In this document: positions 3,488 through 4,090 of the stretch, in pieces | How positions within the stretch are numbered: the first letter of the stretch is position 1 | How the letters are laid out: every line of letters begins with the position of its first letter | IMG/VR virus record: IMGVR_UViG_2700989164_000009 | DNA: 5,847 nt | Direction: 5' to 3' (one strand) | Source: a virus | Lineage: Duplodnaviria; Heunggongvirae; Uroviricota; Caudoviricetes | Translations under genes and position numbers: made by a program | The notes under the pieces: generated by a model | Database searches by the model: none | What the model was told of the DNA's origin: nothing | What the model saw: only the letters and a program-made list of their open reading frames with translations

Positions 3488-4090
3488 TTATAGTAGCCTG
3501 GTAATGCTAAATGCAAACGAACTGGAGATTCCTGCTCCGCTAAGCGTATTGCGCAGGGTCACCCTAAATGTATCTACGCCAATATAAGTAACATCACAAC
3601 TAACTGAATCAGGCGCAGATATAGGTGTTATCTGCACAATATAACCGCTAGCAACTGCTGCGAGCGGATGAGAAAAGCTAACCTCATACACACCTGTAGC
3701 AACCACGTTAACCGATGAAACACCAGTAGCAACGTCGATACTACCATTGGCGTTAATTTTTCCCGAGCGTGTGACTGACAATGCAGAAGCCGATGTTGCC
3801 TTACTGGTTGTTTCTGTAAAAACACACCCAATGTCAACTACCTCGCAATTAGCTCCTGTTATCCAGTATGGTCGATCTGCACTTGGCTGATAATCCCCTG
3901 CGCTCTGGAACGTTGTGCCGTTGAGTATGACTGTAACTTTTCCCCCACCTGAGCTTGTTACTTGAATATTAGTGTGCGTGTATCTTGCACTGCTCACGCG
4001 ATGAAAATTTCCACCGTTTATAACCACAGTTACAGGGCGCGTCCCAGTATTATCTATAGCAAGGTCTGCCCCCCCCGGCATTAGCCTCAA
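3488..4090 (-). CDS. Tailspike protein, C-terminal segment in a different frame (continuation of 4050-5204 after the homopolymer frameshift); probably not an independent gene
   Basis: ORF begins at TTG with no ribosome-binding site; overlaps the upstream fragment by 41 nt around the G8 run. Composition (G/T/S/V-rich) matches a tailspike C-terminal domain. Removing one G from the run gives a continuous 1716-nt ORF from 5204 to 3488. Confidence 0.7.

Follow-up and report, generated by a model that had tools for sequence, protein, structure and literature searches.

Introduction

Frameshifts that split a phage gene at a single base, and G runs that change in length within a gene, are already known, and the closest precedents are the stf gene of lambda PaPa and the poly-G tracts of Campylobacter phages. 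In laboratory lambda, as compared with Ur-lambda, a single-base frameshift splits this host-attachment fibre gene into two ORFs (orf401 and orf314), and stf contains recurrent frameshift hotspots. The side fibres of lambda are accessory and the mutant phage is infectious, whereas the tailspike of P22-like phages is the primary adsorption organelle. In Campylobacter phages, hypermutable poly-G tracts create phenotypic diversity (Sorensen et al. 2021, Cell Rep 35:109214); as presented in that report, these tracts slip in length inside genes, turn the product ON or OFF, and are adaptive in lytic phages whose host lacks efficient mismatch repair.

The tailspikes of P22 (gp9) and Sf6 (gp14) combine an N-terminal PF09008 domain with a parallel beta-helix, and their genes lie at the end of the late operon, beside O-antigen modification genes. 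Shigella prophages that carry such genes are prone to pseudogenisation, in which IS elements flank or invade the prophage and genes are lost, by deletion or IS insertion. SfX induced from S. flexneri 2002017 infected the serotype Y strain 036 and gave serotype X lysogens, with no titres given (PMC3306764), and the prophage of strain 2002017 (NC_017328) has since served as the 'SfX genome' in comparative work (PMC3851460). Our literature search found no paper reporting a frameshift in SfX of 2002017.

Here we describe an SfX-type prophage whose tailspike gene is split by one extra G. Like lambda stf, the gene is a host-attachment gene divided into two ORFs at a recurrent hotspot and, like the tracts of Campylobacter phages, the hotspot is an in-gene G homopolymer. 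In contrast to the lambda change, which was fixed in the laboratory, the SfX change is found in natural clinical lineages; and unlike the Campylobacter phage tracts, the SfX tract is short (seven or eight Gs), is missing in related free phages and mutates in dead remnants too. The element is flanked and invaded by IS insertions and a related strain has lost SfX prophage genes, as in other decaying Shigella prophages, whereas the tailspike lesion itself is a single, potentially reversible base.

Locus architecture

The window, by which we mean the whole stretch of 5,847 nucleotides analysed here (40% GC), is base for base contig AZPA01000223.1 of the draft S. flexneri assembly GCA_000565905.1 (Table 1). 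The contig is bounded by IS sequence at both ends, and the terminus at its right end reaches into the HNH/AP2 gene. Being a chromosomal, IS-bounded contig, it was rejected as free-phage (attP-form) DNA. We assign the element to the SfX type because its gtrX is 100% identical to that of the SfX record L05001.1; the identity to this record extends over window positions 2150-3877, and gtrX adjoins gtrA and gtrB. At the SfX-type locus L005 the gene order is gp7, injection protein, gp16, Arc/Mnt, HNH, tailspike, gtrX-B-A and att. The tailspike gene there follows the ejection-protein genes and mnt/arc and lies next to the gtr/att region, the place that it has in P22-like (Lederbergvirus-type) phages. 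Judging by its sequence, the hairpin between the convergent gtrX and tailspike genes is likely a bidirectional terminator.

Table 1. Features of the window, with positions in nucleotides and the coding strand where one applies
Feature	Position	Strand	Remarks
IS element terminus, left contig end	1..52		Repeated; other element than at the right end
Integrase remnant (int')	53..517	+	IS-truncated, 154 aa; chromosomal relic beside the thrW/yaiC integration site
gtrA and gtrB	867..2143	+	gtrA 867-1229, gtrB 1226-2143
gtrX	2156..3421	+	Serotype-X glucosyltransferase; 100% identical to SfX record L05001.1
Hairpin	3452..3479		11-bp, G+C-rich, terminator-like; between convergent gtrX and tailspike genes
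Tailspike gene, frameshifted	3488..5204	-	SfX-type P22-like prophage; 571 codons after removal of one G
3' fragment of tailspike gene	3488..4081	-	197-codon ORF, ATG CCG GGG GGG GCA (MPGGADL...); product identical to ADA72693.1
5' fragment of tailspike gene	4050..5204	-	As written, 384 codons and premature TAA (4050-4052); product identical to ADA72692.1 of S. flexneri 2002017
G8 homopolymer	4069..4076	-	Ancestral G7 form: GCC GGG GGG GCA (Ala-Gly-Gly-Ala)
Head-binding domain	4863..5195	-	N-terminal, residues 4-114; Pfam PF09008, E = 1.2e-62
HNH/AP2 endonuclease gene	5292..5798	+	3' end replaced by IS terminus from 5784
Mobile-element terminus, right contig end	5784..5847		Multicopy

The prophage of this lineage is otherwise decaying, as seen from the IS insertions and from a related strain in which 19 SfX prophage genes are gone. 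The terminus at 5784-5847 has replaced the last codons of the HNH/AP2 gene, and since this insertion is absent in strain 2002017, it marks a sub-lineage. The mobile element, which we take to be IS2-like, is widespread: its terminus was found in 4537 of 5426 E. coli genomes, in up to 41 copies. The HNH product is on record as a 168-aa form, and an exact look-up of the 178-aa product returned no record.

The integrase relic adjoins many different cargos at thrW/yaiC, namely gtrX, gtrII-type, gtrIV-type and oac genes, or proA directly (L022-L031). This arrangement suggests that phages may have integrated repeatedly beside an old integrase remnant. The adjacency of int', att and gtrA in the chromosome is explained by int' being a fixed relic beside varied cargos, and its wide occurrence led us to reject the 154-aa int' product as a lineage marker. 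GtrX (421 aa) has long been characterised as a serotype-specific glucosyltransferase, yet it gave no Pfam match at E ≤ 0.01; the collection searched has the exact sequence in 1795 index blocks. Assembly GCA_000493265.1 (L007), a G8 carrier, has 16 clustered SNPs confined to gtrA/gtrB (window-equivalent positions 1160-2103), a pattern that suggests gene conversion from another resident gtr cluster.

The split tailspike gene

On the plus strand, positions 4069-4076 read CCCCCCCC, a run of eight Cs that is G8 on the coding (minus) strand. Two minus-strand ORFs, 4050..5249 (399 aa) and 3488..4090 (200 aa), share a 41-nt overlap around this run, and deletion of one G yields a single ORF of 1716 nt (571 codons and a stop) from ATG 5204 to 3488. 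The overlap, the run of eight within it and the length and limits of the repaired ORF had been given in a preliminary description of this DNA, and all were reproduced here. Its central claim, that the two ORFs are pieces of one tailspike gene split by a frameshift in the G8 run and repaired by removal of one G, also held, the homologues being colinear proteins of 570-585 aa. The run is the sole G/C run of seven or more in the window and lies exactly at the frame junction, while about 0.025 G/C runs of eight or more would be expected by chance in 5847 nt of the window's composition. Homologues read FEANAGG[A/V/S]DL, a sequence that is matched by the deletion of one G only, and not by an insertion of two.

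Since the Pfam Head_binding domain begins at residue 4 when translation is counted from ATG 5204, this codon (MTDSIN...) is predicted to be the real start of the tailspike, rather than ATG 5249. In the G8 form translation ends six codons beyond the tract. The downstream frame beginning MPGGADL... (3488..4081) opens only with eight Gs.

Both ORFs are annotated 'Tail spike protein' in CP001383, as might be expected if they were two genuine genes, one for a 384-aa head-binding protein and another for an independently translated C-terminal protein of 197-200 aa. That reading is almost certainly wrong. Inspection of the sequence before the ATG and the TTG of the downstream ORF revealed no ribosome-binding site, and two separate genes are effectively refuted by the homologues, all of them single chains, by the position of the break within one continuous beta-helix (see below) and by the existence of the exact repaired protein in other isolates. 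According to the preliminary description, homologues ending at the same point, together with a separately expressed downstream protein, would have spoken for two genes; instead, in all related functional phages and intact prophages the tailspike is one protein of 570-585 aa.

Position of the break in the protein fold

Residues 1-127 of the repaired protein match PDB entries 7sg7, 1lkt and 2xc1, and the N-terminus resembles the solved head-binding domains of Sf6 gp14 and P22 gp9 (88% identity to Sf6 gp14N in a Foldseek alignment). For residues 121-570 the match is gp13, the tailspike of Sf11, a lytic siphophage of Shigella (sequence of PDB 9occ, E = 5e-217), an entry in which residues 4-59 alone were built experimentally. 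The receptor-binding part, unlike the head-binding domain, is unrelated in sequence to that of P22 and Sf6, and is homologous to those of Sf101 and Sf11 gp13. By sequence homology, one receptor-binding module is common to different phage morphotypes, a temperate podophage and a lytic siphophage.

The structure was predicted with AlphaFold for P0004, a homologue that has 84% identity and matching residue numbers. The model contains a confident stack of short strands at about residues 159-460 and a separate beta domain at 478-570, that is, a parallel beta-helix followed by a C-terminal domain, as in P22-like tailspikes. Foldseek matched it to the full-length tailspikes of Sf6 (E = 5e-21) and P22 (E = 6.5e-16) and to other parallel beta-helix tailspikes and depolymerases; the TM-scores were low because the orientation of domains is arbitrary in a monomer model. 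The frame break, at residue 376/377, lies inside the strand stack, where pLDDT of the P0004 model is about 90-96.

Judged by the P0004 model, the 384-residue product keeps the head-binding domain and lacks the last rungs of the beta-helix and the entire C-terminal domain, about 195 residues. Sf11 gp13 is described as a trimeric LPS-hydrolysing tailspike, and by analogy with this homologue the intact protein is presumably a homotrimer with O-antigen endoglycosidase activity. From what is known of P22-type tailspikes, in turn, the truncated product should not form a functional O-antigen-binding trimer.

G8 as a real allele

Of the three causes of the split that the preliminary description had put forward, the first, a sequencing or assembly error in a homopolymer whose true sequence is G7, has to be dropped. 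All G8 calls do derive from assemblies, and the sequencing of strain 2002017 presumably dates from the 454 years, in which homopolymers were often misread. Against an error of this sort, positions 1-5783 of the window show zero differences from CP001383 (2002017), CP020339, three further draft assemblies and an IMG/VR provirus, all of them G8, and a later, independent assembly of the 2023 era, GCA_028648695.1 (L079), is identical, again with G8, and has the same IS junctions. Altogether, 12 or more assemblies share this G8; they come from at least six projects and pipelines and include two complete chromosomes, SKESA/NCBI and Logan assemblies and the IMG/VR provirus. The exact 384-aa and 197-aa products occur on 32-33 contigs (NCBI and independent Logan assemblies).

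The distribution of G8 among alleles is equally informative. Loci with the window's tailspike allele were retrieved as DNA from seven assemblies found via the truncated product, CP020339, the 39-kb IMG/VR provirus, AZPA01000223.1 and GCA_028648695.1, and every one of them is G8, whereas other tailspike alleles from the same kinds of assembly are G7. G8 tracks lineage and not sequencing platform, in a pattern unlike that of random error, and an artefact, which we regard as highly improbable, is effectively excluded.

Ancestral state and recurrence of the change

Nine of the ten chromosomes (complete or large) that encode an identical GtrX carry G7, followed by the same CAGAC, and eight of these nine are called with an intact 570-aa tailspike; the alleles are about 84-98% identical. 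E. coli PapM-32-1, the closest E. coli relative, is also G7. In an unbiased pattern scan of IMG/VR, metagenome contigs and species-representative genomes, which allowed tracts of 5-11 bases between the conserved flanks, 11 returns were true tracts, ten of them G7 and one G8, with no other length (most returns were chance matches). The exact repaired 571-aa protein is present on 33 public contigs, where it goes under several NCBI accessions. More distant relatives code the same Gly-Gly without a homopolymer, as GGC GGT in Sf101 and as GGT GGT in E. coli G3/10 and Sf11. On these comparisons, G7 is ancestral and functional within one sub-clade, and G8 is derived; within the window allele itself, we infer that the change likewise ran from G7 to G8.

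To see how often the tract has changed, products predicted for other tract lengths and alleles were built and then looked up by exact protein sequence. Upstream products of the G8 type (...AGGGRPCYR) are on record for allele D, which is 98.9% identical to the window allele, and for allele E (84.6%). The downstream ORF that exists only with G8 (MPGGADL...) is on record for the window allele, allele D, the E/F/G-type C-terminus, and R1 and R2, two variants of an IS-truncated tailspike remnant; in the case of allele D it lies on the same two Logan contigs as the upstream half. The G8-only ORFs of R1 and R2 were found on 33 and 23 contigs, respectively. A single residue, some 70 codons downstream of the tract, distinguishes the two remnants, and G7 forms of both are on record too, so that all four combinations exist; this implies either repeated change of the tract or recombination within about 200 nt. 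From these exact protein matches we count G7-to-G8 as having arisen independently at least three times and probably five, with short-tract recombination as the alternative. Since the same +1 change occurred in remnants unable to make a tailspike, mutation pressure alone suffices to account for it. In exact look-ups of the predicted products, none was on record for the window allele as G6, G9 or G10, for allele F as G6, or for the G8 forms of alleles C, F, G and H and of several remnant types. IS-truncated tailspike remnants as such are common.

Origin of the frameshift and of infectious SfX

We consider it likely that the split reflects a genuine, heritable and reversible slipped-strand frameshift at a G-run hotspot in a decaying SfX-type prophage. 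Slipped-strand mispairing during DNA replication would have inserted one G (G7 to G8) in the 2002017 lineage, and the tailspike of this P22-like, serotype-converting prophage would thereby have been frameshifted and stopped early. The G7 run would be a mutational hotspot at which several alleles, including the non-functional IS-truncated remnants, were hit independently, with no need for selection, and reversal from G8 to G7 would be possible in principle. A genuine inactivating mutation, the second cause in the preliminary description, is supported by these observations, with the inactivation itself predicted from the position of the break.

The genome of strain 2002017, the source of the reported infectious SfX, carries G8. 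A tailspike-null genome should give no plaques unless there are revertants or the frameshift is bypassed, which counts against a plain null mutation. Runs of this length revert from a frameshift often enough for revertants to show in a lysate. Most simply, the plaques and lysogens would be formed by rare G7 revertants, which the same slippage would produce and which would be the source of the infectious SfX obtained from 2002017.

The third cause put forward was an ON/OFF switch driven by slipped-strand mispairing, and here the tract-length slippage stands as the cause of the split, and as recurrent, while selective maintenance of the run found no support. As an evolved phase-variation system, the run would be kept by selection and the prophage would flip between G7 (tailspike ON) and G8 (OFF), modulating either the output of adsorption-competent virions or the fitness of the lysogen. 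Much of what characterises contingency loci is indeed present: an in-frame homopolymer whose change in length switches the frame (G7 in, G8 out), both lengths among otherwise identical alleles at similar abundance (the 571-aa protein on 33 contigs and the 384-aa one on 32), and G8 products in five haplotype backgrounds, as judged from matches at the protein level. Infectious phage was obtained from a G8 strain, and the poly-G tracts in Campylobacter phage genes provide a published precedent. Nevertheless, neither the free phages Sf101 and Sf11 nor E. coli G3/10 have the tract, and the same change has struck IS-truncated dead remnants, where there is no selectable function. Only two lengths occur, the look-ups for other lengths of the window allele and of one further allele having found none, and runs of seven or eight are short compared with classical contingency tracts. 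Finally, the G8 loci of the window type show zero differences over 5.7 kb, save for the gtrA/gtrB mosaic of L007, and look clonal rather than rapidly flipping. We regard an evolved switch as distinctly unlikely.

Infectious SfX from a G8 strain would also be accounted for if the G8 form yielded some full-length tailspike with its DNA unchanged, through +1 slippage of tRNA-Gly on GGG GGG G or through slippage of RNA polymerase, leaving the G8 phage weakly infectious. The tRNA could re-pair perfectly within the run, and two codons further on the zero frame has a rare AGA codon; in Shigella, moreover, mxiE and spa genes use transcriptional slippage at A/T runs. However, the known cases of transcriptional slippage in bacteria need about nine or more As or Ts, and G runs are poor slippage sites. 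Compared with shuffled sequences, the 101-nt context shows no better folding (z = -0.20), that is, with no sign of a stimulatory RNA structure, and the homologues do not conserve a split arrangement: those of free phages use a single frame, and the single-frame G7 form is the majority state. Recoding is, in our view, very unlikely.

That either of these holds, so that a functioning G7/G8 run switches the adsorption protein reversibly ON and OFF or G8 is bypassed by +1 recoding, is unlikely. If it were the case, a genome that reads as tailspike-null would still release infectious, serotype-converting particles, and this would explain both the recovery of SfX from 2002017 and the spread of gtrX from apparently defective prophages. 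With the slipped-strand frameshift in a decaying prophage as the preferred reading, the case is otherwise a routine one of homopolymer slippage, and its practical bearing is on annotation and on the 'intactness' of SfX. The sole SfX record in the phage collection searched is 1.7 kb long. As the 2002017 tailspike is frameshifted, the repaired G7 form is the one to use in genome comparisons and in inferring host range; and as the tract is a recurrent hotspot, automated annotation will keep splitting the gene. A single reversible base may decide whether a serotype-converting prophage is called 'intact', and such calls bear on forecasts of how new Shigella serotypes spread.

Variation among tailspike alleles

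The tailspike alleles (L001, L012-L021, L027) are strongly mosaic. They have four different N-termini and two types of central domain that are about 84% identical, and their C-terminal parts recombine independently. The receptor-binding part encoded in the window (3488-4840) shares about 72% identity with gp13 of the lytic Sf11. In the Sf101 tailspike, the linker after the head-binding domain (residues ~134-153) contains a perfect 10-residue tandem duplication, KNLQEELFAI twice, which accounts for its length of 580 aa. In the tailspike region of CP054892.1 (L014) the tract is G7 and only a 207-aa C-terminal ORF is called, which implies a different disruption upstream. A 570-aa tailspike of the Shigella/E. 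coli type (P0139) has been deposited as a protein of a 'Mogibacterium sp.' MAG, a label that is probably due to contamination or mis-binning.
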